A DNA stretch of 36,919 bases from an uncultured Actinomycetaceae bacterium (GTDB lineage: Bacteria; Actinomycetota; Actinomycetes; Actinomycetales; Actinomycetaceae). The stretch is from assembly GCA_963531075.1 (NCBI GenBank), contig CAUSGP010000001.1, positions 1 through 36,919 on the forward strand. The letters run 5' to 3'. Of the stretch, positions 3,472-28,944 are shown one piece after another (the stretch's first letter is position 1; every line of letters begins with the position of its first letter). The notes under the pieces are model-generated. The model searched no databases, had not been told where the DNA came from, and saw nothing but the letters and a program-made list of their open reading frames with translations. Made by a program: the position numbers and the translations under genes.

Positions 3472-3821
3472 TACAGACCTTCTTTCATTGAATCCCTCAA
3501 GGGCATAGACGGTTTAACTCTACGCGAGAAAGGCTCGGGCGTCGCCCAACTCGCCTCGCCATTCAGTCCAAAACCGACAAATTTTTGTACTAGATAAGTT
3601 TTTAGTAGTAGTTGTAGCTCCTGTGGAATCGGTGGATAACCTCCTTTTTCATTGTATTTGCAATGCTTTTGCCTGTGGATGAAACTGTGCGCTGCCTGGG
3701 TGCGACGAACTCAAATCGGTGGATGAGACACTTTCGACCTTGACGAATCCACATGTTGAAACGGGTTATCCACAGGAAGATTAAGCTTCAGCACAGGCCA
3801 ATGCACATCCGATGTGGATTA
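3472..3821. promoter_or_regulatory. oriC (dnaA-dnaN intergenic): DnaA boxes, DnaA-trios and AT-rich unwinding element
   Basis: TTATCCACA at 3766-3774 is a perfect box. Near-consensus boxes lie at 3622-3630, 3631-3639, 3674-3682, 3718-3726, 3745-3753 and 3813-3821. TAG-TAG-TAG-TTG-TAG trios at 3603-3617 sit next to the AT-rich 3578-3602. Confidence 0.92.
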
Positions 3822-5801
3822 CAAAGAGGCCTGTTGAGCGGCCTGCTTGATTCGGCTTGTAAGTTCCGACACCTGGTTATATGTGGTCTGACGCTCGGCC
3901 ATTTGCTTGTCGATCTTCCTGCAGGCATGCATCACCGTCGTGTGATCACGTTTGCCAAAAAGATGACCGATCTTGGGCAGTGACAGTTCGGTCATTTCGC
4001 GGCACAGGTACATGGCGACTTGACGCGCAGAAACAAGAACCCTGCTGCGGTCGGTCGATATCATCTCTTCAATCGAAATGTCGAAATATCCGGCAGTTTG
4101 ACTCATGATGAGCGTCGCCGTGATTTCGATGGCGTCGGGGTTCGCGATGAGGTCTTTGAGGATCATTTCGGCCAGACTCAGGTTGATTGTCTGTTTCGAA
4201 AGATCCGCGAAAGCTGTGACTCGGCGGAGGGCGCCTTCCATCTCGCGGACATTGGTCAACATGTGCGTTGCGATGTACTCGTTGACCTCGCGTGGAACCG
4301 TGAAGCCGTCGGAATGTGCCTTTTTCTCGAGAATGGCGATTCGGGTCTCGAGATTGGGCCGATCGATGTTGGCCGTTACTCCCGAGTTGAAGCGGGAGAG
4401 CATGCGCTCCTCGAACCCGTTGAGAAGATTGGGTGAAACATCGGAGGTGATGACGATCTGTTTATTGGAATTCGTCAGAGCGTTAAACGTATGGAAGAAC
4501 TCTTCGACGGTCGAATCTCGGCCACCGATGAACTGGATGTCATCGATGAGGAGGATGTCCACCGTTCGGAATTGATTCTTAAACTCTGCTTGATGTCCGT
4601 CGCGCACGGAGTTGATGAAGGCGTTCGTGAACTCCTCGGCGCTCACGTAGCGGACTTTGATGGAAGGGAAGAGATTGAGAGCATAGTTCCCGATGGCATG
4701 CATAAGATGAGTCTTTCCCATGCCGGAGTCGGAATAGAGGAACAGCGGGTTGTACGTCGTTCCGGGAGATTCGGCCACGGCCAACGACGTCGCCGTGGCG
4801 AATCTGTTGTTGTCCCCGATAACGAAATTATCGAAAGTGTAGCGGGGATTGATGCGAGCCTTCTGCGATCGCGCCGCGGTATCCGACCGTTTGGCCAGAA
4901 CTTCTTCCGCGATTGTTGTTTGATCGACGTAGCGCATTCCCTGTGTGAAAGATTCGGAGGGCATATGCGAAAGCGCCGAATCTTCTGTGGATGGCGACGT
5001 GTCGAGATGCCTGCGTCTAGTTCGGGCATAATCGGTTCCCGCACCTGCAGATCGTCTTTCATACCTCGAAGCCTCTTCATATGCCGGCGTTTCCGAGTAT
5101 CGTCTCGAAGTTTCGGAGTAATGATCGGTCTCGGGATAACGATTTGAAGATTCGTCCGACGCCACGGACAGCGGATTCTCGCTGGTTTCCTCCGATATTT
5201 CCCGTGTGGCGGTGCTCGACGTCGACGATCCTTGTGCCGGCGAGCTCAAACTCGAGGAATCTGATCTCATCGATCCCGAACCCGTAGAACCCGAACCCAT
5301 CTGATCCGAACTTGTGGATCCTGAACCTGCATGGCTTGAACTCACAGGCCCCGAACTCGCCTGGCCTGAACTCGAAGATCTCGAATTCATCGGACCTGAA
5401 CCCATTGAGCTTGCCTGGCCTGAACCCCTCTGGTTTGATCCCATTGATGCGGGTGAGGCGGAATGAGGAGGTTCAGATGAGGACGGGGGATTCGATGCGA
5501 TAGCCGAGGCGACGGGTCCGACTGGTTGAGATTCGTTAACGCTTGGATCGACAGATATGACGATGCGCACCGGGCGTCCAAGTATATTCGAAAGCATTGA
5601 TGTCATCGTCTCTGAGACGTGTTCTTCTATCCACGTCTTCACGAATTCCGAGCCAACGGCAATCATGAAGATGTCTTCAACCCAGGCAAGCGGATGGGCC
5701 ACACGCACGAAGGCAGCTTGGGAATCAGAGAGCGAACCGTCCGCACGCAGTAATTCGGTTGCCGCATTCCAAGCGTCTTTAGCCGGATTACCGTCACTCA
5801 T
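3819..5801 (-). CDS. dnaA: Chromosomal replication initiator DnaA (660 aa, very long Ser/Gly-rich domain II)
   Basis: INPRYTFDNFVIG, YNPLFLYSDSGMGKTHL, LLIDDIQF, RDHTTVMHA. Start reassigned to ATG 5801 (MSDGNPAKDAW) with an AAGGAG RBS, because the upstream in-frame extension runs through DnaA boxes. Confidence 0.97.
   Translation of the reverse strand: MSDGNPAKDAWNAATELLRADGSLSDSQAAFVRVAHPLAWVEDIFMIAVGSEFVKTWIEEHVSETMTSMLSNILGRPVRIVISVDPSVNESQPVGPVASAIASNPPSSSEPPHSASPASMGSNQRGSGQASSMGSGPMNSRSSSSGQASSGPVSSSHAGSGSTSSDQMGSGSTGSGSMRSDSSSLSSPAQGSSTSSTATREISEETSENPLSVASDESSNRYPETDHYSETSRRYSETPAYEEASRYERRSAGAGTDYARTRRRHLDTSPSTEDSALSHMPSESFTQGMRYVDQTTIAEEVLAKRSDTAARSQKARINPRYTFDNFVIGDNNRFATATSLAVAESPGTTYNPLFLYSDSGMGKTHLMHAIGNYALNLFPSIKVRYVSAEEFTNAFINSVRDGHQAEFKNQFRTVDILLIDDIQFIGGRDSTVEEFFHTFNALTNSNKQIVITSDVSPNLLNGFEERMLSRFNSGVTANIDRPNLETRIAILEKKAHSDGFTVPREVNEYIATHMLTNVREMEGALRRVTAFADLSKQTINLSLAEMILKDLIANPDAIEITATLIMSQTAGYFDISIEEMISTDRSRVLVSARQVAMYLCREMTELSLPKIGHLFGKRDHTTVMHACRKIDKQMAERQTTYNQVSELTSRIKQAAQQASL
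5261..5405. repeat. Degenerate 15-bp tandem repeat in dnaA domain II
   Basis: GAAC/GAAT recurs at exact 15-nt spacing (5278, 5293, 5308, 5323, 5338, 5353, 5368, 5383, 5398), giving 5-aa units such as SSGQA SSGPV SSSHA GSGST SSDQM GSGST. Confidence 0.85.
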
Positions 5802-5895
5802 TGGAACTCCTTGGACGTGTGAGATCCCCTCGCATATTGCCTCCTGCGTGGGACCTGACCAATTTGAACACAGCCCTGGGGACAATGCAACAGGT

Positions 5896-6022
5896 TTATC
5901 CACAGACTTGTCCACAACTGTGGAAATTACATCCATGTCATTTGATTAGATCTATCCGTGCGCTGTTGATCCAAACTTGAGAATGGAGCTTTATCCACAG
6001 CTGTGGACACAGGTGTGAATAA
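5896..6022. promoter_or_regulatory. DnaA-box cluster upstream of dnaA (dnaA/rpmH divergent promoter region; upstream half of a bipartite origin)
   Basis: TTATCCACA 5896-5904, TTGTCCACA 5908-5916, TGTGGAAAT 5919-5927, TTATCCACA 5991-5999, TGTGGACAC 6002-6010, TGTGAATAA 6014-6022. Confidence 0.9.
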
Positions 6023-8471: not shown

Positions 8472-8693
8472 CGACCATCTTTGGTCTCGATTATGACTCC
8501 CACGCTTTCCCTAGTTTATGCATCGCGTTCGGTAGCTTGCGTGATGTATCCCCTCTATTGGTCGGCTGCGGCTTTTTGTATTCGGCAGTCATCGCCTGTG
8601 TGGCAAAGGGTAGGCTCTCGTCAATTGCCGAATGGACGCCGACTACTAAGTACCTGCCAACCATTACATCTATCCGCTGGAAAACGATCTACT

Positions 8694-8837
8694 CTGCAGA
8701 GCAGCGACTGGTTTTTTTTCGGTAATCATAAACAATTTGTTTTGCAGGACCACGAGCAATCCTCTCTGCAGAATTGTAAACGAAGCCTTCTGCTAGCCTA
8801 CGGGCACTCTTTTCTGCATGCGTGTTCCTATTCGCGT
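8694..8837. repeat. Highly degenerate 24-bp tandem repeat (about 6 units) in the yidC-jag spacer
   Basis: Units start at 8694, 8718, 8742, 8766, 8790 and 8814; five begin (C/T)TGC and most end in a T/C run. Confidence 0.55.
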
Positions 8838-9014
8838 GAGATGGTTCTGCACGCGACTCCGCCGCATAAGAAGAGTGTGCCTTATACGTATAAAACATAT
8901 AAAAGGGGTTTTCATGAGAGTTCTTGAAGTCTCGAAGGCCCTGCCACCAACGTTTTTCACAACTCACTACCCCTCACGCACTATTGCGGTGCTAGTTGAA
9001 GAAAGGACGAACTG

Positions 9015-9818
9015 ATGGCTGATAGAGCTGAACTCGTTAAACGACTCAACGACGAAGGCGATTTTGGAGCTGACTACATTGAAGAGCTTCTCAACATTGC
9101 CGATCTGGACGGTGACATCGAAATTGGCATTGAGGCAGATCGTGCGTCTGTTGCGGTTGTGACCGAAGGTGTTGCTGATCGTAGGCTTAAACGCCTAATA
9201 GGTCAGGGAGGCCAGGTTCTCGATGCCCTCCAGGAGCTTACTCGCCTCGCCGTTCAAGCAAAAACCGGTGAACGGAGTCGTCTCATGCTTGACATAGCCG
9301 ACTATAGAGAGTCACATCGCCAAGAAGTTGCTGCTATTGCGCAAGAAGCTGTCGCCTCCGTTCTCGCCAACGGTGAGCCGGTTTCATTAGCTCCGATGAA
9401 TCCGTTTGAGCGCAAGGTTGTTCACGACATTGCCGCTGCGGCTGGACTTGCATCTGATTCGGAGGGTGTTGGCAATGCACGTCATGTCGTTATTACTTTG
9501 AAAAGCTCTGAGGAACTTTCCGACGTGGAAACAGAAGACGCCGAAGAGGTAGATGCTGAGAAGGCCGTCGGCCTAGATGCCGAAGCGACTACCGAAGGAG
9601 AGAACAAAGATACCGTTAGTATCGAAGCTGAAGACAGTGCTGATGTATATATTCGAGGCACCTTCGAGCTACCAGATAGTGATCAAGCCGCTTCTACACC
9701 TGTACGTACGAATGAAGACTCCGCTGGTAGCGGTAGCTTAAGCAACGCTAAACCACTTGCCAGTAATTCCAACCTCAGCCAAGAAACTAACCACCTAGCC
9801 GATTCGAAGGCTGAGTAA
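9015..9818 (+). CDS. jag: Jag/KhpB (EloR) KH-R3H RNA-binding protein with acidic C-terminal extension
   Basis: EGDFGADYIEELL, LIGQGGQVLDALQELTRLAV, R3H motif PMNPFERKVVHD; GAAAGGA RBS. Confidence 0.92.
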   Translation: MADRAELVKRLNDEGDFGADYIEELLNIADLDGDIEIGIEADRASVAVVTEGVADRRLKRLIGQGGQVLDALQELTRLAVQAKTGERSRLMLDIADYRESHRQEVAAIAQEAVASVLANGEPVSLAPMNPFERKVVHDIAAAAGLASDSEGVGNARHVVITLKSSEELSDVETEDAEEVDAEKAVGLDAEATTEGENKDTVSIEAEDSADVYIRGTFELPDSDQAASTPVRTNEDSAGSGSLSNAKPLASNSNLSQETNHLADSKAE

Positions 9819-9825
9819 ATCAGTC

Positions 9826-10470
9826 GTGAACGACAAGAAGATGCCAGTGGAAGCCCCTCCCGAGGGAGGGGCTTCCCAGTTTGGCGATGATGTATGGGAC
9901 CAGTTACTCAGCTATGCAGGAATGATTGAAAAGGAGGGCGAATTACGCGGTCTTGTCGGACCCCGCGAACTTCAGCGCTTATGGACGCGTCACATCCTTA
10001 ATTCCATGGCAATTCTTCCTTTTATTCCAGCTGGTGTAGATGTTGTCGACGTTGGTTCGGGTGCTGGTTTTCCGGGTATCGTTGCTGCCATAGTACGCAA
10101 GGACCTTCGTTTTCTTCTTGTCGATTCAATGGAACGTCGGGTGCAGTGGCTGAACGACGTTGTTGCGGCCCTATCTATCCCTAACGTTGAAGTTATTCAT
10201 GCAAGATCCGAGGACCTGATCAATGCCGTTAGGGCTGACGTCGTTACGGCGAGAGCGGTGGCAGTTTTGAAGAATCTGATTCCATTGACAATGCCGTTGT
10301 TGAAAGGTGGTGGTTCCTTAGTTGCACTTAAAGGCGTACGTGTTGATAACGAGATTGATGAGGCAATCAGTATATTGCGCGAGTACAACGCGAAATGGGC
10401 TGACGTTCACTTTGTTACCCCTTTTGGAACGCATGAGGAGACGAGAGTTCTTGAAATTCGGAAAAAGTGA
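9826..10470 (+). CDS. rsmG: 16S rRNA m7G527 methyltransferase RsmG (GidB)
   Basis: RGLVGPRE..RLWTRHILNS, VDVGSGAGFPG, VTARAVA, LKG. Confidence 0.96.
   Translation: MNDKKMPVEAPPEGGASQFGDDVWDQLLSYAGMIEKEGELRGLVGPRELQRLWTRHILNSMAILPFIPAGVDVVDVGSGAGFPGIVAAIVRKDLRFLLVDSMERRVQWLNDVVAALSIPNVEVIHARSEDLINAVRADVVTARAVAVLKNLIPLTMPLLKGGGSLVALKGVRVDNEIDEAISILREYNAKWADVHFVTPFGTHEETRVLEIRKK
9849..9876. other. Perfect 13-bp inverted repeat in the first codons of rsmG
   Basis: ggaagcccctccc-ga-gggaggggcttcc, followed by cagttt. Confidence 0.8.
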
Positions 10471-11072
10471 CTAAAGCGTATGTACCTAATGATGCTTAAC
10501 AGTTGAGATTAAGTTGTCTTTATATTGTTAAATACCATTTAAGGTAACTTATAACGTTCTAGTTCATTATATTTATTTTGATCTTAATTTTATCGACGTA
10601 ACTATCTTAGGATGATATTTATAATATCTAAACTAATAGGTTGTCACTATGATGTGGCAGTAAAATCTTATAGTTAACTTAGTTAAGTAACATATAGAAT
10701 GTTTGAATTTGATCTTGATTGCGGAACTATTTCAATGTTTAATAGCTTAAACGGTTTTTTAATAATTATTTTCTGATTTCATATGCCTTTACCTACTTAC
10801 ATAGTCCGTTTATTTCCATAATTAGCGTAATTCTCGTTTTAACTTATCCTTTTATTATCGTTTTCTTATTTCTCTGCTGTTCACTACTATCTTTGTTCTT
10901 ATTTTATCTATATATAATGTGGTCAAATTGCAATCGATCTCTGGGGTTTAGCTCCACTTTTGCTTTCTAGTTGATCCGATAGTTCTAACGACGTGTAACA
11001 TGTACTTTATGACAACCTAACCCTAAACTAAGTACGATTAGTCTAGTATCTAAACTTTAAATTAGATTTTTG

Positions 11073-11088
11073 CGTTTCACGTGAAACT
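11073..11088. promoter_or_regulatory. parS site 1
   Basis: cGTTTCACGTGAAACt, the 14-bp actinobacterial parS palindrome. Confidence 0.93.
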
Positions 11089-13290
11089 TTCGATGTCTAG
11101 TAAGTTGACAGACTGTTAGTTGACATTAGTGGCGATAGGTCACTGACCACATTTACTGTCTGATTTCAACTGACCTCTTCCAGTACCGTGTGAATATCGC
11201 TAAAAAAAGGGAGATCCGATCTGGTGCCAGCGTTTTGGTGGCAGTGAGGAAACTGTGTTTATGATCTTATTGATACCTAGGGTGCGTTGGAAATGGTTGC
11301 TGCTGAGTTCGTTTGGTACTGCGAATAATGACTGGTGTTGGAGGTATGCGATTTCATTCAGAAGAAGACGGGATGCGTGCGTGCAAAAATTTTTTCAAAC
11401 CGAGGTAGTGTTTGTTAGTGAACTTAAATAGAAGATTGAGGGTTCTCTTCAGTTTTTAGTAAAGAATAGTTTCTTGTCAAGTGAGAATGGGATGGGTTAG
11501 AGAATAGGTTTGTAAGTTTAGGGAACCAGGAACTCTGTTAGAGCTGCAGGTAGTATCTCTCTACTGCCATGAATGCACTGATAAAAGGTTGCTGCACCGA
11601 AAGCAATTTTGGCGATACTAATATTTGACGAAACTGGTTGATTGGGCTCACGTAGCTCTGTTTGTTCTTCGACTTTTGGGAAATGAAGTCAAGTTGCCAG
11701 TATGCTTCAGATTGAATGTAAAAATTTTAAAAGGTCTTTTTGAACAAGTTCCGGTCGGATTCACATAGCGCGATTCTACTAACAGACCAATTAAGCGACG
11801 GAAGCAATCAGGAACACCGTTAGTATCGATTCGATAGTTCAGATACATAGTTGTTTACTGCATTGATTTCCGTCGTGGGACATATACTGCTCTATAAGCT
11901 ATTCGATTTCTTCCTAGAGGTCTTTAACAAATTTCGGAGACATTAAGATAGCTGGTGGCCATAACGTCATCGAATAGATAACAGCCATGTTTAAATTACA
12001 GCACTGATAAAGATCATTGATTAAGTATTTGTTGGAGGCCGATACAGGAGTGTGGCTGATACCGGAGAGGCACTGCTATTTGTAAACCTTATAACGTTTT
12101 GCTTGTCACCAAGCTCTACTGACCAACGTATTTGATATCAACTAGGTAGTAATTGTATATAGCTTATATCGGATTGTATTATTCGCCTGAGGTAGAATAA
12201 CGACTTACTTAAAGAGTGCATTAACTCGCTTTCTGTGAATCTCAAGAAATGACGAGATTGGACACCAGTCGTGTTGCTCAAAGTGACAGACAGCGCGGTA
12301 TTCATAGATCACCTGAGCGGAGATTCTTGCTTGAGACAACAACGACTACGGTTAGGCTAGTTTGATATTTACAATCTCCAAAATTCGATTGCAGGTCAGT
12401 ATCAGTCATTAATACCTAATGTTCTGTGAGGGACAATCCGCCGTGAGCCGTTGCAGTGATCAACGCATCAGCCGCGTCTGGTTTAAGTTGGATATGATAA
12501 GCTCACATACTACTGATCCATTTGATCATTGCAGAAGACTAGCTAAGAGATTCTGGACGTGAAGGTGAAATTGCAGAGGATTCTTATGTCCGTAGAGGCC
12601 ATCTACGTACCGCATATTTGTCAAATATGACCGCTCCCGTTTCTATTGACCTGTGTTTCCCATAGCGACATGTAACTTGCGGTGGGTCTCATCAGGCAAG
12701 GAAGTAAATTATCCAACCATCAATGGCTTCTTTGACACGGTATGAAGGTATCACCGAACGTACAAAGTAGATGCTAAAGGGTCACGGATCACTGAGCATG
12801 TCAGTGAACGTAGACTCCAGGTCAAAGCAAGATGGTCACGAATCCAGTCGTAGCGCAGAGAAAGGACACGCGTCGAGTTCCACTTGGTTTTTCGCCGATA
12901 CTGAGCTACTTGTGAACTCATCACAATCATCTCTAACTTACCCCTTTTGCACCTAACGGAAGTAAATTATTTGGTAGGTAGCTTATGGTGGTAAAGCGTA
13001 CTGACTTGACTATTGACTAGTATCCTTTATAAACGAGCAACCAACTTCGACCGCGTGTAATTCAGATATCGTTTAACTGTATTAACTATAAAGGAGATAT
13101 TTCCCTGTCGTGTGATGCGTACTTCGCTAGCCGTTACGATTGCCGTTTACAAACAGCACCCAGTAATCAGACTAGGTGTTGTTAATGTTTCAGATAACTT
13201 GAGTTAACCACGGCGCCACATAACTGAGTATTGCCAAGACAAATACTAAAAATTAGGACTGTGTAACAGTCGAATGGCCATGCTTGCTGT

Positions 13291-13306
13291 TGTTTCACGT
13301 GAAACA
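13291..13306. promoter_or_regulatory. parS site 2
   Basis: TGTTTCACGTGAAACA, the perfect 16-bp universal parS. Confidence 0.96.
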
Positions 13307-14310
13307 CAACTGACTCTAAATAATATCGACATATCAAAAATTTTGAATGGGTTAGTTCGATGCACTGTTGATGTGTATAAGCTAGGGCATATGTAACCTA
13401 TATTTAGGTCGAATTTCGCTAGTATAATATCAGCGAAAACGAACTTCTAGAACGGTGTGAATGTAAATCGTTAAGTAACTCTACGGTGCCAGAGACGATA
13501 CTAAAGGTCATCCTGTGATTTGATAGCGATGCTAATAGTGAATGTTTCTAAGTATAAATGAAGTAACGATACTTCTATCGGTAAGTGCCAACGTTAGTCG
13601 TAGAACCTCGACGAACTACAGATATACCTATGACTGTTTTGCTTGAAGACCTTTGATTACAGGTATCCAAGGTATTCAAGTTTATATAGACAGCAAACAA
13701 AACACATTTTATAGCTGTTCTTGACATAGCTGACTTATATCAAACCAATCAGTCAATAGAAAAGCATTGTCTGTCAAGGTGAGATCATACAGAAACAGTG
13801 GTGTAATTAGATGGAGGTTATATTTATTTGCTAAGTTTTTTTGCTTAATCTAGAATCGATCTAATTGAGTGTGTCTTGGACAGAGGCTTTACTTTGTCAG
13901 TTAGTTACCCTTCAAATCTAGATGTAAATTTGTAAGTTCGAATATCAATTTCCTCGTATTTTGATTGATTTAGCAGCTCATAGCGTCAATTGCATGACGA
14001 GTTTGTAACAAACAAATGAGTTAACGTAGTAGTCTAAAGATACAAATCTATAGTTAATTTGGCAAGACTTCTGCCGCTGCAAGATAAGTACTTTTGCAGG
14101 AAGGGTATACTTTAAGCAGCTTCGATTTGCATACGATGATACTGGGTGTGCCATAAAAGATCGTAGTGTCTGTTGGCTTGAAGCTGCGTTAGCTAAAGAA
14201 ATTACGGACACTGTTTCTCTACCAAGCTGCCTCAAGATGTGGCTATTGTTGGATAAAGGAAAACTGAAAAATATCTAGTCTAATAGAATACAAAAGTCCT
14301 GGCAGGCGTG

Positions 14311-14326
14311 CGTTTCACGTGAAACG
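14311..14326. promoter_or_regulatory. parS site 3
   Basis: CGTTTCACGTGAAACG, a perfect 16-bp palindrome. Confidence 0.95.
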
Positions 14327-15110
14327 TGGAATTTAGCTTAAGCAATTGCTTCAAGATTCGCAGGTAATAACCGATATAGCCACCCCGGAAGGCGTCGCAC
14401 CACAAACTGAGGGTACTGTCGTTGTGTCACAAATGGTATCAGGTCGGTTGGGCTCTGATAATCGAATTAGTTAGAAGTTCTCTCTAAACCAAACGGGCAG
14501 TTTGTGTATCACTAAAGACAGTCAGCAAACTAATGCATAGATTGTTCAGATTTGGCTATTGACGGCAATGCAATAATTACTGATGCCGGGTACTGTAAAG
14601 TACGCACTATCGAGCTTACTGTTTATTCAAAGTACATATGTAAGCTAGTCGTGCGTTACTACCAGCTTCTCCGTTTGGTACGCCTAGAAAACTTATTTTA
14701 AATAACTAGTGATTGAACTAAAGCGGACCATATCGATTTAGTCCTCTAACATTAATACAGACAATAGAAAATGTAAGTTAATAGATGATAGCTGCATGTA
14801 TGTAGCTATCATTTCTGGCAATGTCTCTACTGCCTCAGCGGCTGGTTGTCGCTAATCACTCTAAGCGCGTGTTGATCTTGTTGATCGAGAACATTCAATC
14901 AAACTAAGAAACTTAGGCTTGCAGATCTGAGAACATAAGTAGTAAATGAATATTAATCGCATTTGGACAAGATAAACTGTTCATTTGGGCACTCTCGACC
15001 ACTAGGATTTCATTAGCTGCTTCGTTTTGCACCTTTCGGTCCTAAAGATCAGTAGTTGGGTTACTTAATGCACGAAATAAAGGGAGTGAGGATACCTGTA
15101 AAGGATAACG

Positions 15111-15126
15111 TGTTTCATGTGAAACA
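15111..15126. promoter_or_regulatory. parS site 4
   Basis: TGTTTCATGTGAAACA, one central mismatch. Confidence 0.88.
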
Positions 15127-15620
15127 GAATGTCAAAGAAGAACACCATTGTTTGATTATAAAAACGAAGGACGTAAATTGGTTCTGGCTGTCCCGGGCTG
15201 AATCGATGGGTTAAATTAGCTACGAACTAATTCATTAGTAGTTGGTCGACTTCTAGTTCCGGGTATAAGCAAGAGGTTTGGCAATGCCTTATTCAAAGTT
15301 GGCGACTTTTTCTTTAAAATTTGCGTATAGATACTAGCCGGAAGCCTCAGGACAAAATTAGGTAATAGAATTTTTGTACGAAGAAACAACATTGACTTGT
15401 ATACAATAAGTCTAATATTACACACGAATTGGCTTTAGAAGGGTACTTAATGCCCGAGTTAACTAAGTCCAGCTAGATCTGTAGGGGCAGACAACTAGAC
15501 TATAATCACGATTACCGCTCGCAGTTCCTTAGTTTTATATTATCGCCTAACAGTCTGTAACGCAGATGAGCATTAGGCTCAACGTGTTTAAGTGTTTGAT
15601 AGTTGTATATGAACTGAAAG

Positions 15621-15636
15621 GCTTTCACGTGAAAGT
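15621..15636. promoter_or_regulatory. parS site 5 (symmetric variant)
   Basis: gCTTTCACGTGAAAGt; the outer G/C pair is swapped in both arms, preserving a 14-bp palindrome. Confidence 0.7.
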
Positions 15637-15901
15637 GTCACAGATAGATAAACTGGCAAAACCTCATGGCAACAGACGACCTTAATATGTCGAAGCTTAC
15701 GTTCATAAATTATAAACAGAGCGCACGGCTTTATTAGAGTAGCCATATTTCCTTAAGCGAATATTGTGAAGAAGGGTTTTAGTAGTTTCTCCACATTCAG
15801 CTCTAACGCCTAGATATCATCGATGGCTGAACTATATTTGTAAAGTAATCCATAATTAACTAGCTACTGTCAGAAGTTGGTATAACTCCTTGTGTAATCT
15901 G

Positions 15902-15917
15902 CGTTTCACGTGAAACA
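15902..15917. promoter_or_regulatory. parS site 6
   Basis: cGTTTCACGTGAAACa. Confidence 0.93.
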
Positions 15918-16854
15918 TTCAGATGTCTAGGAAAGTAACGGTTGCCAATAGTATATGTCACCACTCAAAGCCGTGGCTGTGTGATAGAAGCCTACATTCG
16001 GTAATTGGTCTATTTGGAGCAGTGTAGAAATCAAGTTGTCGATAGGCTTCAAATTTTACCTATTAGTACTATGAGAAGAAATGAGAATGAAGATCTGCTG
16101 TATCTGGTAAAGTTGCTGGGGTACAGGTCATTAGAATAGGTTAAGATTATTCGGCGAATTCAATAGCCTTGTGCTGTAAAATTCATACTGACATGTGGAG
16201 GTGCTGAAAATACTAATGTTATTGCTCAATCGGAATGCTGGTTGTGAACTATCTGAAGTAACTGCAATCTATATAGTTGTTGTATAAACCATATTTATTG
16301 AGGAACTACTAGAGTCTTGCACCATGAGGAATGTAGGTGCATTACGTTACTAGTATCTGCAGTGAGTCGTTGGTAAACTAAAACTATTAATCACACACGT
16401 CATTGTTGCATGTGCATAGCGTACCTCGTTGCTGTGCTTGGACCGTTGATCGCAGCCAGGTAAGGTTTAAATGACTCTATAGGAGGACAGTTTGGTAGAT
16501 ATATACTATCCTCTACTTTCTGAGCTAGTAGTTCTTTGACATGGAATACGGCAGGCAGCTCGGATTGTTTGGCGTGACGTATTATGCGTAAGCGAAAAGC
16601 TATAAGACTCTAACTTTCTGATAGCGAGCTTAAGCTAATTCTCGTCGCTGATCTGACCACCGTACTCGATAAACGTCTGGGACTATGTTTCTTCTATCTC
16701 GTTGAGCTGAAAGATTAACAGTTAATGATCAGTTTTATCAATAAAAGAAAAGGAAGTGAATGAATCTAGGCTGTAACTATCACGTTAAGAACGAAGATAG
16801 CCGTAAGTTTACAGAAAGCGAGTGTCCTCTAAGCCGGAACTTCCAATACCCAAA

Positions 16855-16870
16855 GGTTTCACGTGAAACA
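16855..16870. promoter_or_regulatory. parS site 7
   Basis: gGTTTCACGTGAAACa. Confidence 0.93.
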
Positions 16871-18306
16871 TGTTGGCGCGACAGGTCGGATCACCTATAT
16901 CAAATGATCCATTGTGATTAAAGGCAAAGTTAAGGAAGTTCTTGTCCGTAAAAGACTGCGATAGAGGTTGGTATATAACTTGACTACCGCAGTTTATTTT
17001 CTGTAATGATGTTAAGGGGGTGATGCAACGGCTTTTAAAACTGCTACTAGTTTAATTGGGATGCTAGTTCGCTATGCTTAAAAATAAGGGTGTGTGGATT
17101 ATTCAACCTGGTATCAGGGTGGCGTATGGAATAAAGAACAGCATAAGAATATAACGCTTACGTGGAATTAATAACTAGGGCATGCGTAGAAGCTGTCGTT
17201 AACTTCGTTGTAAAGGACGTTGTTTGCACGGAATCCAGAGTAAATCCTTTTTATGAGCCTGTTTTGATATCAGTTCCTTTGCCACCTGATACTTAGTTTC
17301 GCAGTGCACGAATCTTCCCTCTTCGCGGTTATCCGCAGGTTGGAAACGCTTCTCTATTTGTTTCGCACAAAGTTAATTCGGCCTGTGTGTTGCTTGGCTC
17401 TCGCACTCTGTGTCGTTTTAGAACTTCTGCTGTCTGACACAGTATGAGCCTTGCCCTTCGGGTCTCTGGGACTCCGTGCGGCTATATGATCTTCCTTCTG
17501 ATAAATCTGCATAAAGTTTCTGGTCGATGTCATCGATAAGGTGTTCTGACCAGGGACTACAGAATCAGATCCAGGTATGAAAAGTATGCGAGTACATTTT
17601 CTCGAACGATATGCAGAGATCTTATAACCTTGTGCAAGTAGTGCGTTTTATACGTGTACGTTATTCTTAACTTTTGAGCGTGGCTGGTGTAGAAAAGCTA
17701 GGTTTCGACGTTTCAATAACTTGAATGCGAGAATTCACACTATATACGTACAAGAATAAAATCTGCTCGGGTCTTCTGCCGATGGTTTCTGCAACAGAAT
17801 GGTTGTACTCGGAACGTCAATCGGACCAGTGCATTATCCGAAGACCAAATGGGCCGTGCCGGTTAGAATTCTAACCGGAGTACTAAGCAGATGAGTGTTT
17901 AATGGAAGTATCCAGTCCGAACTAGTCTTAGTGAACTCTAAAGAGAATCCCACTATAGAGAGTAAATCAAGGAATGGATGTTCTTCGTCGAGGTGAAGAT
18001 ATTCTTTCTGAACTAGGTGGGACTCGTCAAAACGTGTTGTTTTTTCACACAATGCACGTACGTAATCTCGAACAAAGACGACTTCTAATTGATACGGGGT
18101 GTGACCGTTATAGAGCACAGTGCTTCTTGAGTACTGCCGAATACGATGCACGGGGTATGGATATGGCGAATGCTGTGCCACGACCAAAATTCCTTGAGGG
18201 TATTCAAATCACACTTACTGACAACGATCTCTCTATCGGCGAGATTTGACTATGCAGATAGAACACCGTAGGCATAATTCAGAATTTCCTGGATTGGACT
18301 TAGTTC

Positions 18307-18390
18307 TGTGGAAAACCTGAACGAAGAGCACGGTGTGGATAGGCCAATTTCAATGTGTGTTTTGCGTAGAATGTAGTGAGACGAGAGGAG
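18307..18390 (+). promoter_or_regulatory. Putative parAB promoter with two DnaA-box-like motifs
   Basis: TGTGGAAAA 18307-18315, TGTGGATAG 18334-18342, -10-like TAGAAT 18367-18372, RBS GAGGAG 18385-18390. Confidence 0.5.
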
Positions 18391-18397
18391 TGGATAC

Positions 18398-19351
18398 GTG
18401 AGTGATCCCATAAGCAAGGCGCGAGGGGCAACCATGCGGGTGACCGAAGAGGAAAGCCCGTGGGATCGCCTGCGGGGTGAAGGGTCTCCCCTTGCTAATA
18501 GTCTGGCTGAAGACATGAAGAGACTTGACGCAATTGGTGGATCCAAGTTTAGGTCTCCTGCGTCAACTAGGATTATCGCAATAGCCAATCAAAAAGGCGG
18601 TGTCGGAAAAACTACTACTGCTGTCAATATGGCTGCCGCTTTGGCTCAAGGCGGTTTGAACGTTCTTGTGGTTGATGACGATCCGCAAGGCAATGCCTCT
18701 ACTGCTTTAGGCGCTAGTAGAGACGAGGATGTTGCAACCCTATATGATGTACTTGTCGGAAAAGCGACAATGCGTGAAGCTATGCAGTCAACAGAAAAGC
18801 TTAAGAATCTATTCGTGGTTCCCTCGTCGATTAACTTGTCACTGGTTGATGTCGAGCTTGCTGATCAAGACGATCGTATGACAAGACTTCGTGACACCCT
18901 CCGTCAAGGGTTGAATGAGATTGCTGCGCAGGGGTTTTCCTTTGACTATGTATTCATCGATTGTCCCCCGAGCATGTCACTTTTGCCTATCAATGCTTTG
19001 ATTGCTGCCAAAGAGGTGCTGATTCCGGTTCAGACTGAGTATTATGCCCTGGAGGGATTGACTCAGCTTCTGCATACCATTGAAGGTGCTAGCGCTTCGC
19101 ATAATCCTGAATTGCGCGTAAGTACAATTCTGCTCACGATGTCGTCAAAGAATACAAATCTTTCCGCTGAGGTTGCGGAAAATGTTAGGGAATTTTTCCC
19201 TGATCAGACGCTTGAGACGGAAATTCCAAGGTCAGTTCGCATAGCCGAATCACCATCTTATGGAGAGACCGTCATCACATTTGCACCCCGCTCCAGTGGC
19301 GCTATCGCTTACCTGGCCGCGGCACATGAGTTGGCTAGTCGAGCCGAGTAA
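18398..19351 (+). CDS. parA: Chromosome partitioning ATPase ParA/Soj
   Basis: Deviant Walker A NQKGGVGKTTT, DPQGNAS, FIDCPPS, PVQTEYYALEGL, IPRSVRIAESPSYG. Confidence 0.97.
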   Translation: MSDPISKARGATMRVTEEESPWDRLRGEGSPLANSLAEDMKRLDAIGGSKFRSPASTRIIAIANQKGGVGKTTTAVNMAAALAQGGLNVLVVDDDPQGNASTALGASRDEDVATLYDVLVGKATMREAMQSTEKLKNLFVVPSSINLSLVDVELADQDDRMTRLRDTLRQGLNEIAAQGFSFDYVFIDCPPSMSLLPINALIAAKEVLIPVQTEYYALEGLTQLLHTIEGASASHNPELRVSTILLTMSSKNTNLSAEVAENVREFFPDQTLETEIPRSVRIAESPSYGETVITFAPRSSGAIAYLAAAHELASRAE

Positions 19352-19364
19352 GGAGTAGGTAGAA

Positions 19365-22300
19365 ATGGCTGAGCGTAGACGCGGTCTCGGAAGGGGGATC
19401 GGTGCTCTCATTCCGGCAGCGCAGAGAGAGACAAAGGACCGTCCGATCGACGTTTTCTTTGGCAGTGGCGCGACCGCGGAGTCTGAAAACGACAAAAGTG
19501 GTAGTAAAAAAGTGTCATCGAAGTCGAAGAAGGTGAAGAAATCAGCAAAAGCTGAGGGAAGTACCACGTCGAAGCGCTCACAGGCACCAGAAACTGAGGA
19601 TGTTCAAAACGCTACATCTTCCGGGCAAAGTGCGGATGGCAGGTCAGCGATTTCAGATGAAGCAAAAGGACATGCTTCCGGTAAAGGCGATGTGAGTGCT
19701 AACGTCAAAGCTAAAACAGGTACTTCTCCAAAGAAACAGCGCAGCAAGGATGACTCCTCCGAGTCGACTAATCCGTCGAGTTCAGGCAACTTGCCAGAAG
19801 AGACTGATCGCAGTCGCCATGATGTAACGCAGCAAGTCACGACTGTTAATGGATCCGCTTCTGAAAGACAGTCGAAAGACAAGTCTGGGTTTGTTGGAGC
19901 GAATGAACTCGCAGCAAGAAGTGCTGCCACAGCGGGTAAAATCTCTGAGAAGGCCGTATCCGTGTCTGCTGGAGAAAATGCTGCAGTTGATACTGGGCAA
20001 TCAGATGATGCAGCCAGGCCGTCAGTCAATATAACCGAAGAAGTGTTTGTGAGTGAACGAGACGACGTCGTTGGACGGGCTGGCAACGACGGACGGACTG
20101 ATACTGATGGGAAGGAATATAGCCCTAAACAGGCCGGAATTCATGAACATGTGGACGCCCCTGAGGTTGGTGTAGAAGAACGTAGTGGCGCCGTCAAACA
20201 CAGTGATGCCGTTAAACAAGACGGTAATGACAAACGCGGCCGCAACGTTGAGCAAAGTGACTCTAGTGAATGGTCGGCTCCAGAAGAGACCGCCGGTACA
20301 TCTCTTGATGAGCGAAATGCCATAGCCTCGGTTGATGAAGTCGGAATCGTTCTTGGTGACGACAAGAAAGTGGCCAGCGAAAGCATAGAGGTAGCCGATG
20401 CGGAAGAATGGGTAAACGGTAAGGCCGAGGAGGCAGCCTACGCTGACCGAAAGGTAGCTGACGCTGAGAGAAAGGCAACCGACGCTGGCAAGACTGCTGA
20501 TACAGATCACCCAACTGATGAGACTAGTAAGTCAGTTGCTGAAGTTGGTGATTCAGCCACTGAAGTAGACGCGTCAGCTGTTGAGACAGGCGGATCAGCC
20601 ACGACCGATATTATCGTTGCGAATGCCGACGTCGCTGCTTCAATTCCTGGCACTTCTACTTCTTTCAAGACTGATATGCGAGTGTCTGAAAAGACACCTG
20701 AGGAGAGCAAAGCACATTCTGTAGATTCCCCAGCGACTCTTGACGAACCTATCGTTACTGGCGTCGGGGAGGCTCCTACTTCTGTTGAGCATATTGCTGC
20801 TGTTACCGCAGGTGCTTCTGCCTCTGGCGAACGCACTGCTCCTGCCGCTAACACAGTTCGTCGCAAGACGAGTGTGCGAGCTTTTGATCAATCAGGCGCT
20901 GTTGAGTTTTCTGAGGAAATTCCTTCGGTAGAAGTGAAGCCTAGTGTTAGAACGACAGTTTCCGACGTCGGCCGGGTTAATGATAAGCAATCTGGTAACG
21001 CAGAAATTGATGATGCTGGAACGTCGGCTCAAGCTGCCGACAACGGAGCGTCACCTGCCGACAACGGAGCTACCGATAATGAAACGCTGTCTGAGCGTGA
21101 TGGTGAAGTACTATCTGCGGAAGCTAGCGGAACATCGGATGGAAACGCCGGTGAAACACCGTTTGAAAATGCTGCTGAGACAGCGCTTGAAAGTGGCGGT
21201 GAAGTACCGATTGAAAATCAGGATGGAACGTCAACCAAGGATGAGAATGTGAAGCTACATGAGGTTGATGGCGGGACGCTCCGTACAGACGCGGCAAACG
21301 TCGAAAAGTCCGTGGATACAGGCGCGAACCTGTCCGGTGCATTTGAGGTTTCGACCGACCACGACGGAAGGTCCGTTGACGAGGAGAATGGAAGTTCTGC
21401 CGCCAGCAGGATTGAAAGTACTAATTCGACTGACATTCCTAAGGATCCAACCACTGCAAGTGGGGATGCTGCTTCTATCGTGTCGGTCGAAGATCCCGGA
21501 CAACCGAATGGAACGGTTCCTGCAGACCGCGAATCCGAAGGGTCGGACTCCGACGAAGTCGACAGTATCGATGCGGATGATGAGGGGCTTGTCGAGGTTC
21601 CGGGTGCTACGTATGCTGAACTCCCGCTCGACGAAATAATCCCGAACACCCGACAGCCGCGAAATGTCTTCGATGAAGAGGAACTCGAAGAATTGGCTGC
21701 TTCCATCCGCGAGGTTGGGATCCTCCAGCCGGTCATCGTTCGTCCTCTATCCGCTCCAATTCCTGGACAACCGAAAGCTCGCTATGAGCTCATTATGGGT
21801 GAACGCCGTTGGCGCGCTTCCGAGTTGGCCGAGACCGGAACTATTCCCGCAATCATTCGGCATACGCAAGATGAAGACTTGCTTAGGGATGCGCTTCTTG
21901 AGAATTTGCATCGAGCAGAACTCAATCCGTTGGAAGAAGCGGCCGCCTACCACCAGCTTCTTGAAGATTTCCAATGCACACAAGAAGAGCTATCGCGTCG
22001 AATTGTAAGATCGCGCCCGCAGATTTCCAACACTTTGCGGCTGCTCAAGTTGCCTCCGTTGGTTCAACGCCGGGTGGCTGCAGGGGTATTGTCTGCCGGA
22101 CATGCGCGCGCATTGCTCGGTTTATCCGATCCTGGGGCAATGGAACGACTCGCTCAAAAGATCGTTTCTGAGGGGCTTTCTGTACGGCAGGTTGAAGAAA
22201 TCGTTGCTCTTGGTGATGAACCGACGGCTTCACCGACTAGTTCGCGTCGGCGTACTAAGCGTTATGGGCCCGAGCTCGGCGAATTGTCAACCAGACTGGC

Positions 22301-22442
22301 TGATCGTTTCGACACCCGTGTCAAGGTTGAAATGGGGGCGAAGAAAGGCTCCATTAAGATCGATTTCGCTTCGATTGACGACCTTAACCGAATTTTGGAG
22401 GTTCTTACGCCAGGAGAAACCGGTGTCGATGTTGTGGAGTAG
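19365..22442 (+). CDS. parB: Chromosome partitioning CTPase ParB, 1025 aa, with low-complexity insert of about 700 aa
   Basis: N-terminal RRGLGRGIGALIP peptide. The core begins at about residue 741: NTRQPRNVF, GILQPVIVR, GERRWRA, HTH TQEELSRRIVRSRPQISNTLRLL, SAGHARALL, C-terminal KGSIKIDF. AAGGAG RBS after the parA stop. Confidence 0.96.
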   Translation: MAERRRGLGRGIGALIPAAQRETKDRPIDVFFGSGATAESENDKSGSKKVSSKSKKVKKSAKAEGSTTSKRSQAPETEDVQNATSSGQSADGRSAISDEAKGHASGKGDVSANVKAKTGTSPKKQRSKDDSSESTNPSSSGNLPEETDRSRHDVTQQVTTVNGSASERQSKDKSGFVGANELAARSAATAGKISEKAVSVSAGENAAVDTGQSDDAARPSVNITEEVFVSERDDVVGRAGNDGRTDTDGKEYSPKQAGIHEHVDAPEVGVEERSGAVKHSDAVKQDGNDKRGRNVEQSDSSEWSAPEETAGTSLDERNAIASVDEVGIVLGDDKKVASESIEVADAEEWVNGKAEEAAYADRKVADAERKATDAGKTADTDHPTDETSKSVAEVGDSATEVDASAVETGGSATTDIIVANADVAASIPGTSTSFKTDMRVSEKTPEESKAHSVDSPATLDEPIVTGVGEAPTSVEHIAAVTAGASASGERTAPAANTVRRKTSVRAFDQSGAVEFSEEIPSVEVKPSVRTTVSDVGRVNDKQSGNAEIDDAGTSAQAADNGASPADNGATDNETLSERDGEVLSAEASGTSDGNAGETPFENAAETALESGGEVPIENQDGTSTKDENVKLHEVDGGTLRTDAANVEKSVDTGANLSGAFEVSTDHDGRSVDEENGSSAASRIESTNSTDIPKDPTTASGDAASIVSVEDPGQPNGTVPADRESEGSDSDEVDSIDADDEGLVEVPGATYAELPLDEIIPNTRQPRNVFDEEELEELAASIREVGILQPVIVRPLSAPIPGQPKARYELIMGERRWRASELAETGTIPAIIRHTQDEDLLRDALLENLHRAELNPLEEAAAYHQLLEDFQCTQEELSRRIVRSRPQISNTLRLLKLPPLVQRRVAAGVLSAGHARALLGLSDPGAMERLAQKIVSEGLSVRQVEEIVALGDEPTASPTSSRRRTKRYGPELGELSTRLADRFDTRVKVEMGAKKGSIKIDFASIDDLNRILEVLTPGETGVDVVE

Positions 22443-26759: not shown

Positions 26760-26775
26760 CGTTCCACGTGAAACG
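26760..26775. promoter_or_regulatory. parS site 8 (outlying)
   Basis: CGTTCCACGTGAAACG, one mismatch at a position variable in the universal parS consensus; intergenic. Confidence 0.8.
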
Positions 26776-27246: not shown

Positions 27247-28944
27247 TCACGTCTTCTCCCGCTGTCTTCTCCCTCTGTCTTTACGATGGCACGCTATAGA
27301 CACGGCCGCGCTAAAGAGACTGTCGACGTCGGATGAGCCATATTTCGTATCCGTCAGGCCCAAAGCGCCGTCGACCGCTTCGATTGCTTGAAGAAACTGG
27401 CCACGCCGCAGATAGCGTCCGACCTCGCCTTTGATTGATCGCAGTTCTCAGGCGCGCTCGCGGATGAGTCGGGGCGAAGGGACGAGCCACGTGCACATTT
27501 CTCTAGGTTCCAGCTTGAGAATGCCTCCACCGTAGCTGCGTCCAGACAATTCGGCGCTGAGCATGCTTGCCGAATTGAGGCCGGCTAAGGGAAGGAGCTC
27601 TGTTCCAAGTTGGACAAGGCCGTCTAAAAGGTACACGCCGTAAACTGAGTTGAGATGATGTACACGTGCTGCATTCGCAACGATACGTGGAGAATCTGTG
27701 TTCATGGCCGTTAGAAGAAGATTGGGAACCGGAGGCAATGGAACGATGTACCACGGTTTGCGAGCCCGGCACTTGTACGCGAGATCGACGCCAATTTCAC
27801 GGCCCATTTGCACGTAGCTCTTGGCTGCGAAGGAAAGTGGCTCGCGTGGGCGGAAAAGCAGAGTTCCTCTTTCCTTCTTTCCGAGTCTGGTCAGCATAGC
27901 TGAGGTAAGCGACAGTCCATGTAAATGAGCGCTTCCCGAGGGGCTGATTCTCACGAGGTCGCGGCGCTCAAGCGCTAGCTCACGTGCGTGAAGAGGTGAC
28001 AGTGTGAAATAGCTGTTGTTTCCTGTGACCGCGCCGAGTCTGATTGAGCCCCACTCGCTGAGCGGCGTCAGAGCCGCCCTATTGCGCAGAACAGCAAGCT
28101 TGGCACGAGCAGGAGCGGGTGCAAGCAGTTCCGTCCACTTGCCTTCCGGATTGAGCGGAGACCATGTGTTCTCAGGATCGGCTGCGGATGAAGGTGAAGA
28201 GAGGTCGGATAGATCGCTTTCATCACGAGCTCGACGTATCGTGGCGTGTGATGTTGAGCCCCCGTATCCGTCAGCCAGAAGCAATATGACGTTGGCTTCT
28301 GCCTCTTTGAATACCAAACGTTCGAAGAAAACCAGTTCAATGCTCGCGAAGCTGTTGAAGAGGAAACGGCGAATTGGTGCCGCATAGTTGACGCTGAGCA
28401 ATTCGGTTGGGAGGACGAAGCCCAGTCGCCCTCCGGGACGAAGGAACTGGCTGGCATGAACAATGAAAGGGGCCCAGCTTGAGGCCAGAGCTGTCAGTGA
28501 GACTCCCGCACGGGCAGCAGCTTCTCTAGCTGCTGTTCGCGATGTGCCGTTGAAGCCTTGATATCTGATGTAAGGCGGATTGCCGATGACGGCGTCGTAG
28601 ACCGCATTGGCGGGAAGGTCAAAGAAATTAGAGACTTCGATTCGAGCCTCTACGCCTATGGTGGTAAGGCGTTCACGAGCTGTTTTCGCGGTTGGAGAGT
28701 CGATATCGACGCCGTTAATCTGCGCGCGGAAGTTCGGACCGGGCCCTCCAACACAGCTCGCTGCTGACAGCGTGAGAAGTTTTGTGGCTGCGGGGAGAAG
28801 AAAAGCTGCATCGCCGCAGGATGGATCAAGGATGCGGTCGCTTGCACAGCGCACCGCCCAATCCACAATGGACTTTGCAATTGGAGCGGGAGTGAAGAAG
28901 GCTCCGCGCGCTTTGCGAGTGTCGCGAGTCAGTGCTTCAGGCAT
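27247..28944 (-). pseudogene. N6-adenine DNA methyltransferase (gamma class) interrupted by an in-frame TGA at 27448-27450
   Basis: RKARGAFFTP, motif I ILDPSCGDAAFL, motif IV VIGNPPYIRY, GRSYGGGILKLEPRE. The same frame continues 66 codons past the TGA (ELRSIKGEVGRYLRRGQFLQAIEAVDGAL...) to a TGA at 27247-27249. Confidence 0.75.

Follow-up and report, generated by a model that had tools for sequence, protein, structure and literature searches.

Why would a bacterium keep almost 8 kb of DNA without genes between rsmG and parA? This question is raised by the stretch of DNA analysed here (hereafter the window), the first 36,919 nucleotides of contig CAUSGP010000001.1 from an uncultured Actinomycetaceae bacterium (assembly GCA_963531075.1, designated G000; 2.16 Mb, GC content 0.60). 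Its genes (recF, dnaN, dnaA, rnpA, yidD, yidC, jag, rsmG, parA, parB, D-Ala-D-Ala ligase and trxB) place it in the origin region of an actinobacterium, and the closest named relatives of its ParA come from Actinobaculum sp., an Actinomycetaceae bacterium and Ancrocorticia sp. A gap of 7,927 bp (10471-18397) separates the end of rsmG at 10470 from the start of parA at 18398. An earlier note had described this gap as a gene-free 'regional centromere' with seven parS sites and a GC content far below that of its flanks. The low GC was borne out (0.396 compared with 0.600 genome-wide), and when 2-kb segments of the assembly were ranked by GC, the lowest nine of 1,723 all overlapped the gap. It is fairly probable that this non-coding block with its seven parS sites is the ParB-loading centromere of the chromosome, with selection acting on the parS sites and probably on their spacing, and that ParB spreading causes the DNA nearby to drift toward AT.

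All seven previously named parS sites are present: parS 1 (11073-11088), parS 2 (13291-13306, a perfect 16-bp palindrome), parS 3 (14311-14326), parS 4 (15111-15126), parS 5 (15621-15636), parS 6 (15902-15917) and parS 7 (16855-16870). Five have a perfect 14-bp core (parS 1, 2, 3, 6 and 7), parS 4 has one core mismatch, and parS 5 is a degenerate palindrome with two core mismatches and 4 of 16 positions off consensus overall. By chance, very few sites would be expected in the gap (mean 0.026, maximum 1 in 500 Markov resamples). Genome-wide, nine sites with at most one core mismatch were detected in the 83% complete assembly, six of them in the gap; an outlying parS-like site with one core mismatch lies at 26760-26775 and is also found in L190, an independent metagenome contig. 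As had been claimed, parS is the only recurring long word of the gap, in the sense that no other repeat family has long near-exact copies there. A Myxococcus-like tandem parS satellite was considered and rejected, since the intervals between sites are irregular (281-2,218 bp) and nothing apart from parS is repeated.

To examine selection on these sites, we used 17 strain comparisons from metagenome loci belonging to five species-level groups and pooled the 14 without an excess of insertions and deletions (indels). Differences were six-fold less frequent in parS (8 of 1,442 positions, 0.0055) than in the spacer (3,059 of 90,924, 0.0336), and four-fold degenerate sites in the same 14 comparisons differed at 0.0204 in adjacent and 0.0169 in more distant genes. 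In addition, of the six runs of 11 bp or more that are identical three ways and lie more than 900 bp upstream of parA, five were parS cores. Thus, parS is under purifying selection. The corresponding ParB (1,025 aa; parB, 19365-22442, forward strand) comprises an N-terminal GLGRG motif, an acidic linker of about 740 aa, and ParB_N, helix-turn-helix and dimerisation domains. It contains GERRWRA, and when aligned to the solved ParB structures 6t1f and 6sdk it has R, T, K and G at the four specificity positions. R173 and G201 have been reported to define parS preference, as opposed to Q173/R201 of Noc (PMC7383237); by this alignment, the protein bears parS-type residues at the equivalents of R173 and G201. 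We have little doubt that the array is a chromosomal ParABS centromere.

The further claim that only the palindromes are under sequence selection holds for the palindromes themselves but not for the word 'only', as the last 70-95 bp of the spacer are also conserved between the window and its congeners G001 and G002; parS is therefore not the sole selected element. This conserved end of about 95 bp looks like a parA promoter. A parA upstream element at 18361-18397 (forward strand) includes a -10-like TAGAAT at 18367-18372 in six of six lineages, followed by a purine-rich putative ribosome-binding site. Slightly upstream, within 18307-18342 (reverse strand), two 9-mers (18307-18315 and 18334-18342) resemble what we take to be the DnaA-box consensus and are aligned in four of six lineages, so that control of parAB by DnaA would be possible.

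The absence of genes in the gap was confirmed by several approaches. The lengths of its open reading frames (ORFs) are like those in resampled DNA (longest 124 aa, compared with 113±19), and no Pfam match was obtained for any of the 66 ORFs running from stop to stop over 40 aa or more, a scan that covers heavily broken genes less sensitively. One ORF at 17974-18249 (91 aa) was examined as a candidate gene and rejected, having neither an NCBIfam or Pfam match nor a nucleotide alignment in relatives. Comparison of the gap with phage and plasmid sequences gave no match, Rfam gave a single sub-threshold chance match, and promoter and terminator scans of the spacer returned numbers equal to those of shuffled sequences (18 vs 20.9 and 6 vs 5.4, respectively).

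These searches bear directly on the explanation that the gap is a decayed prophage, island or pseudogene cluster that acquired parS later, or a misassembly. Misassembly was ruled out by L190, which aligns in a single piece over 21 kb with 97.2% identity and has the same seven parS sites. A foreign origin would fit the low GC within a GC-rich genome and the slight enrichment of long ORFs in the gap of the congener G004 (93 vs 77±6 in resampled DNA), and sequence saturation could conceal an old one. However, besides the lack of any Pfam, phage, plasmid or Rfam match, small indels show no preference for multiples of three, the position and parS register are common to the species, the colinear contig is independent, and the GC trough runs continuously into core genes. 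Neither remnant homology, an integrase, att repeats nor absence from relatives was found. Hence a decayed island, which the earlier note had named as an outcome that would overturn its proposal, is very improbable.

Four of five congeners have an assembled locus: G001 (8,043 bp, 8 parS), G002 (8,554 bp, 9 parS), G004 (9,074 bp, 6 parS) and G005 (2,457 bp, 8 parS). A long interval (8.0-9.1 kb with 6-9 parS) is thus present in three of the four. In a nine-gene tree, ((G004,G005),(G000,(G001,G002))), every node of the genus received 100/100 support; by parsimony, this topology makes the long gap ancestral in the genus, with later shrinkage in G005, the alternative being two independent expansions. 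We then surveyed 131 genomes of the family, 125 of which carry rsmG together with parA on a single contig and strand, with gap lengths estimated from match coordinates. The median gap was 375 bp; 28 of the 125 gaps reached at least 2 kb and five at least 5 kb, namely four in the genus of the window and that of G120, a member of another genus (5.8 kb, 9 parS, GC 0.60 vs 0.59 in its flanks). G150 has a 3.9-kb gap with 8 parS. In another family, G032 contains a 6.4-kb stretch without called genes but with 8 parS downstream of parB (L271:15352-20000 plus the start of L064); of the 28 ORFs listed for a portion of this stretch, 23 were scanned and gave no Pfam match, and the stretch is likely an independent gene-free array. 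Therefore, enlarged gene-free arrays recur. A different arrangement was noticed in L073, whose rsmG-parA gap holds 18 parS-like sites in 2.7 kb, many of them 54-110 bp apart, like a tandem-duplicated array.

Although ParA is 92-93% identical between the window and G001/G002, a blastn search with the window's spacer found no similarity to theirs beyond parS and the last 70-95 bp. All ten inner spacer segments of the window scored like shuffles against G001/G002 (z about 0), so the orthology of individual sites between them is based on register: counted from parA, six parS sites, beginning with parS 2, are in register, while parS 1 has no in-register counterpart. The degenerate parS 5 corresponds in register to perfect sites in G001/G002, is present in L190 and was not found in the locus L231; it is probably weak. 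G001 and G002 are closer to each other, with colinear spacers (z 6-64) at about 0.4-1.0 substitutions per site as estimated by simulation, compared with 0.10-0.13 differences at distant four-fold sites, but the lengths of the seven intervals bounded by their parS sites differ by just 0-8%. The pattern predicted for an alignment across relatives was thus borne out, with conserved parS, unalignable spacers and, in three of four congeners, similar lengths.

Is the length itself selected? Within species, it is constant to about 1% among 18 complete spacers (L231 and L196, without an anchor, and L191 and L197, which are partial, do not belong to this set). The letters of the spacer are unconstrained whereas its length is stable within species. 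It could be argued that the spacer is tolerated junk, in which parS alone matters; its length would have no function, having arisen through small duplications and being retained since deletions seldom occur or tend to cost a parS site. Polarised indels agree with this, as 142 bp were deleted and 142 bp inserted (largest event 56 bp) and exact tandem duplications of 10-19 bp occur among strains. Without a net deletion bias in base pairs, persistence needs less selection than was assumed, which also counts against the centromere reading where spacing is concerned. So do the lengths across relatives (four-fold variation within the genus, 2.5 kb in G005, less than 5 kb in 120 of 125 family genomes) and the report that a single parS is enough for normal growth in Corynebacterium glutamicum (PMC7083940). 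A local tendency to expand is suggested by the linker of ParB, which is enlarged in these same genomes (739, about 500 and 327 aa vs 46-210 aa elsewhere in the family).

On the other hand, tolerated junk does not readily account for inter-parS distances that stay within 0-8% at 0.4-1.0 substitutions per site and within about 7-30% after full saturation, while some ordinary G001-G002 intervals changed length two- to three-fold. Nor does it explain why none of 13 spacers shows a large deletion in the 2.4-2.7-kb parS-free end of G001, G002 and L198-type strains, and young bacterial pseudogenes have been reported to be removed fast (PMC2916853). Since bacteria rarely keep kilobases of non-coding DNA, an 8-kb block that lasts through saturation points either to selection on spacing or to a deletion-poor region. 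We regard the junk explanation as unlikely, if far from negligible, and selection on length as only slightly better supported than an even chance. Maintenance of length, as proposed in the earlier note, is thus plausible but unproven: three of four congeners are long, but in one the spacer measures only 2.5 kb, and 375 bp is the median of the family.

The same proposal held that AT-richness may be maintained, and in its full form that A+T is selected, for instance for flexible DNA or for binding of nucleoid proteins. It is true that in all five members of the genus the flanks are less AT-rich than the spacer, and that the segment adjoining the rsmG stop (10471-11000), the part of the window's spacer with the most A+T, is extreme, being T-skewed with a GC of 0.285; the first 500 bp of the spacer are the GC minimum in G001 and G002 as well. 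However, spacer singletons across all 17 strain-comparison members (649 GC>AT, 551 AT>GC) give an equilibrium GC of 0.40 vs the current 0.44, and in the species of the window the values are 0.42 and 0.40. Absolute GC varies from 0.33 to 0.56 within the genus and reaches 0.60 among arrays, in the 9-parS gap of G120 that matches its own flanks. Together, the polymorphism equilibrium and this range indicate that the low GC is passive, which we consider likely. The shift also extends to synonymous sites of essential genes. Selected AT-richness is accordingly improbable, and this part of the proposal is not supported.

What, then, lowers the GC? The depression is not confined to the spacer. GC content at four-fold degenerate sites (GC4), calculated from orthologs of at least 70% or at least 50% identity with at least 40 sites and a third-position excess filter, declines toward the array (dnaA 0.64, yidC 0.54, parA 0.43, jag 0.42, rsmG 0.38). 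Within 5 kb it is 0.46 in G000 compared with 0.74-0.76 beyond 50 kb, 0.62 compared with 0.83-0.84 in G001, and in G005 0.49 compared with 0.89 at 25-50 kb; the same pattern is found in G001, G002, G004 and G005. We also tested 23 regions (37-100 kb each), restricting the analysis to codons supported by homologs. Here, GC4 less than 4 kb from parS was below that more than 8 kb away in 5/5 regions of the genus and 18/18 outside it, and after removal of jag, rsmG, parA and parB a dip was still seen in 5/5 and 16/18, respectively. Where parS lies at or after parB, the dip shifts there (rho -0.60, 36 loci); with gene and locus fixed effects, the slope is -0.25±0.04 (0 of 300 permutations), or -0.27 when the genus of the window is left out. 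The depth of the raw trough is related to the number of parS sites (rho -0.52) over 105 of 120 loci, after exclusion of 3 duplicates, 3 loci lacking rsmG and 9 lacking both gene sets. A literature search at the level of titles and abstracts returned nothing on a parS-linked GC trough, a mutation effect or a gene-free Actinomycetaceae array. What is new here is that the synonymous GC of neighbouring genes falls toward parS.

Several results weigh against ParB as the cause of this trough. With the core genes removed, the dip is not significant (p<0.05) in G002 and in 7 of the 18 outside regions. In phylogenetic contrasts, the effect of parS dose is null (r=-0.04, 47 of 96 negative) and the asymmetry of the dip at most suggestive (r=-0.29, 63 of 107, p=0.08). 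Tests on independent pairs gave no significant result for the trough. In G005, the trough leans toward dnaA/oriC (GC4 0.26 in dnaA, 0.47 in parA). Moreover, all 23 regions include parAB, so an effect of the locus is not fully separated from one of parS. Finally, the spacer recombines within species, in blocks of several kilobases with haplotypes up to 11% apart, and an absence of recombination was rejected because of these mosaic blocks. Four-gamete incompatibility at less than 1 kb was 0.03-0.07 in the spacer and 0.18-0.46 in the flanks, in two groups with few flank sites, which is compatible with recombination being reduced, not absent. Overall, ParB appears somewhat more probable than not as the cause of the trough.

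One competing explanation, modelled on a proposal for yeast centromeres, is that of a centromeric mutation hotspot, where repair (e.g. of uracil, or by NucS) would be blocked by ParB/SMC occupancy, so that mutations become more frequent. Between species, spacer divergence is several-fold above that of distant synonymous sites, and synonymous divergence between G001 and G002 is doubled within 5 kb (0.24 vs 0.10-0.125 beyond 25 kb), mostly through transitions (0.153 vs 0.068). G:C>A:T polymorphism is raised 1.8-fold in the spacer (p=7e-5), and nucS is found in all five genomes. However, A:T>G:C changes are lower in the spacer (0.58-fold), with an AT bias raised 3.0-fold relative to flanking four-fold sites (z 5.2), and GC-neutral changes are flat both in polymorphism (G>C 0.0046 vs 0.0044 in the flanks, the latter from only 10 events) and between species (G<>C 0.028 vs 0.027). 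Within species, the median ratio of variability between the spacer and flanking four-fold sites is only 1.6, the spacer being higher in 12 of 17 pairs. Between species, the contrast can be inflated by interspecies recombination elsewhere, which lowers four-fold differences to as little as 0.03 in some genes. General hypermutation is thus not supported, as GC-neutral changes are not raised, and release from a GC-favouring fixation bias fits better. A hotspot limited to transitions would still be compatible with the data: the strain differences are not fresh mutations, and therefore a C>T-specific rise is inseparable from fixation bias. As a whole, the hotspot seems to us rather unlikely.

Based on ParABS biology, the centromere could operate as follows. 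CTP-bound ParB clamps would load at parS, slide over several kilobases and recruit SMC-ScpAB, with spreading of perhaps 10 kb, as reported for Caulobacter (PMC5815017). The spacer would buffer this ParB/SMC zone from the incoming yidC-jag-rsmG transcript and from the parAB promoter; the comparisons suggest that large deletions would be disfavoured because they lose parS or move the zone onto that transcript and promoter. In the weakest step of this scheme, the force that keeps GC high (biased recombination or repair, or codon selection) would be weakened within the ParB zone, and the DNA would then relax to a GC of about 0.4. Genes for the loading machinery were searched for in the genus: smc and scpA were found in the four long-spacer genomes (G000, G001, G002 and G004) and scpB in all three searched (G000, G001 and G004). 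All three genes are thus encoded in G000, where ParB-dependent SMC loading is predicted.

By contrast, no smc, scpA or scpB was found in G005, in which scpAB is deleted in place between intact flanks (L310:8551-8690 vs L311:6661-7933) and the smc locus lies at a contig end. This single genome is the only congener with a short spacer (2.5 kb), lacks scpAB and has the deepest trough (GC4 of dnaA 0.26 vs about 0.89). SMC has been reported to promote ParB spreading in Streptomyces (PMC12511625) and head-on transcription near parS to antagonise SMC (PMC5583512), and by analogy the short spacer and scpAB loss would fit both reports. In the family, the 7 of 131 genomes that lack a ScpA match show gaps of 16-2,458 bp, but most ScpA-positive genomes have short gaps as well, and SMC loss was therefore discarded as uninformative for predicting a short gap across the family.

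The linker of ParB is another variable component. It is a low-complexity sequence rich in A, S, E and D without a Pfam match, and measures 739 aa in the window, about 500 aa in G001, G002 and G004, 327 aa in G005 and 46-210 aa elsewhere in the family (median 54 aa outside the family). Among strains, its amino-acid sequence evolves almost neutrally. Its length tracks that of the spacer within the genus; over 20 family loci, the correlation with gap length is rho 0.70, falling to 0.35 (p=0.20) without the genus of the window.

Clustered parS sites are already known. The present array agrees with them in all the features that were tested and is set apart by being a single 8-kb gene-free block with saturated unique spacers. 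C. glutamicum likewise has an actinobacterial ParABS with SMC and a single parS cluster, at which SMC loads, but its reported 10 parS, nine of them intergenic, occupy 35 kb at a distance of 73 kb from oriC (PMC7083940); those sites lie among genes, whereas here seven share one 7.9-kb gene-free block, and the probable oriC is only 5-7 kb away. Myxococcus xanthus also has a dense cluster upstream of parAB, described as 22 parS in 3 kb about 4 kb from parA (PMC3899335), which is far denser than the long, irregular intervals of the window. In Caulobacter crescentus, at least five parS lie within 5 kb, about 8 kb from ori, and ParB covers about 10 kb, similar to the width of the trough; as described, however, those sites are inside essential or costly genes, not in dedicated non-coding DNA (PMC5815017). 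ParB peaks reaching 50 kb have also been reported (PMC7022226).

A less direct parallel is with yeast centromeres, which according to published accounts have conserved protein-binding elements in fast-diverging AT-rich DNA (PMC3155921) and depress the synonymous GC of nearby genes, with troughs poor in third-position GC (PMC2997560). The machinery is unrelated, the trough is about 10-20 kb wide instead of 100-300 kb, and the rate increase described for yeast spans the whole mutation spectrum, whereas here transitions are up and GC-neutral changes flat, with few flank events. The term 'regional centromere' can serve here only as an analogy. The position of a eukaryotic regional centromere is set epigenetically, without a required sequence motif. 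That model was rejected for this locus, since a conserved motif under purifying selection, parS, defines the region.

These observations may have wider implications. The amount of free DNA that ParB and SMC require could be tested cleanly with this array. In addition, it provides a neutral standard inside the genome, with GC4 of 0.75-0.9 in ordinary genes, 0.4 here and a graded transition through essential genes, so that the cause of high bacterial GC (selection, biased gene conversion or repair bias) becomes testable at a single locus. The trough suggests that a protein-coated chromosome domain may leave a compositional footprint, as yeast centromeres do. More speculatively, there might be a bacterial 'centromere paradox': ParB/SMC coating would locally switch off the GC-keeping process, every parS cluster would sit in a GC-poor, fast-diverging trough of 10-20 kb, and this genus would carry a selected gene-free centromere of 8-9 kb whose size co-evolves with condensin, the reduction to 2.5 kb accompanying the loss of scpAB, and with a ParB linker of 500-740 residues. 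We offer this extended version tentatively and doubt that all of it holds; if it were true, ParB spreading zones could be read from sequence alone, and the locus would be a natural control for the maintenance of high GC.

With respect to the flanking genes, rsmG (gidB; 9826-10470, forward strand, GC4 0.38-0.40) is the final gene of an rnpA-yidD-yidC-jag-rsmG run directed into the spacer, and parA (18398-19351, forward strand) has a GC4 of 0.41-0.43. On the other side of this run, dnaA (3819-5936, reverse strand) is flanked on both sides by clusters of DnaA-box-like words (3631-3813 and 5877-6014), and together they are likely to represent oriC, 5-7 kb from the array. A predicted DNA methyltransferase-like ORF of 498 aa (27448-28944) beside trxB has weak MAD2/PglX-type matches below the cut-off, and a 148-aa ORF between yidC and jag (8481-8927) has no NCBIfam or Pfam match. 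The dnaA ORF has 705 aa, with about 340 residues preceding the matched domain, and Jag (9015-9818) ends in an acidic C-terminal tail; these are further expanded low-complexity parts near the array. In G000 contigs C3 and C18, some genes differ from those of G001 at 3-16% of four-fold sites, compared with about 45% typically, which suggests recent gene exchange between the two species.

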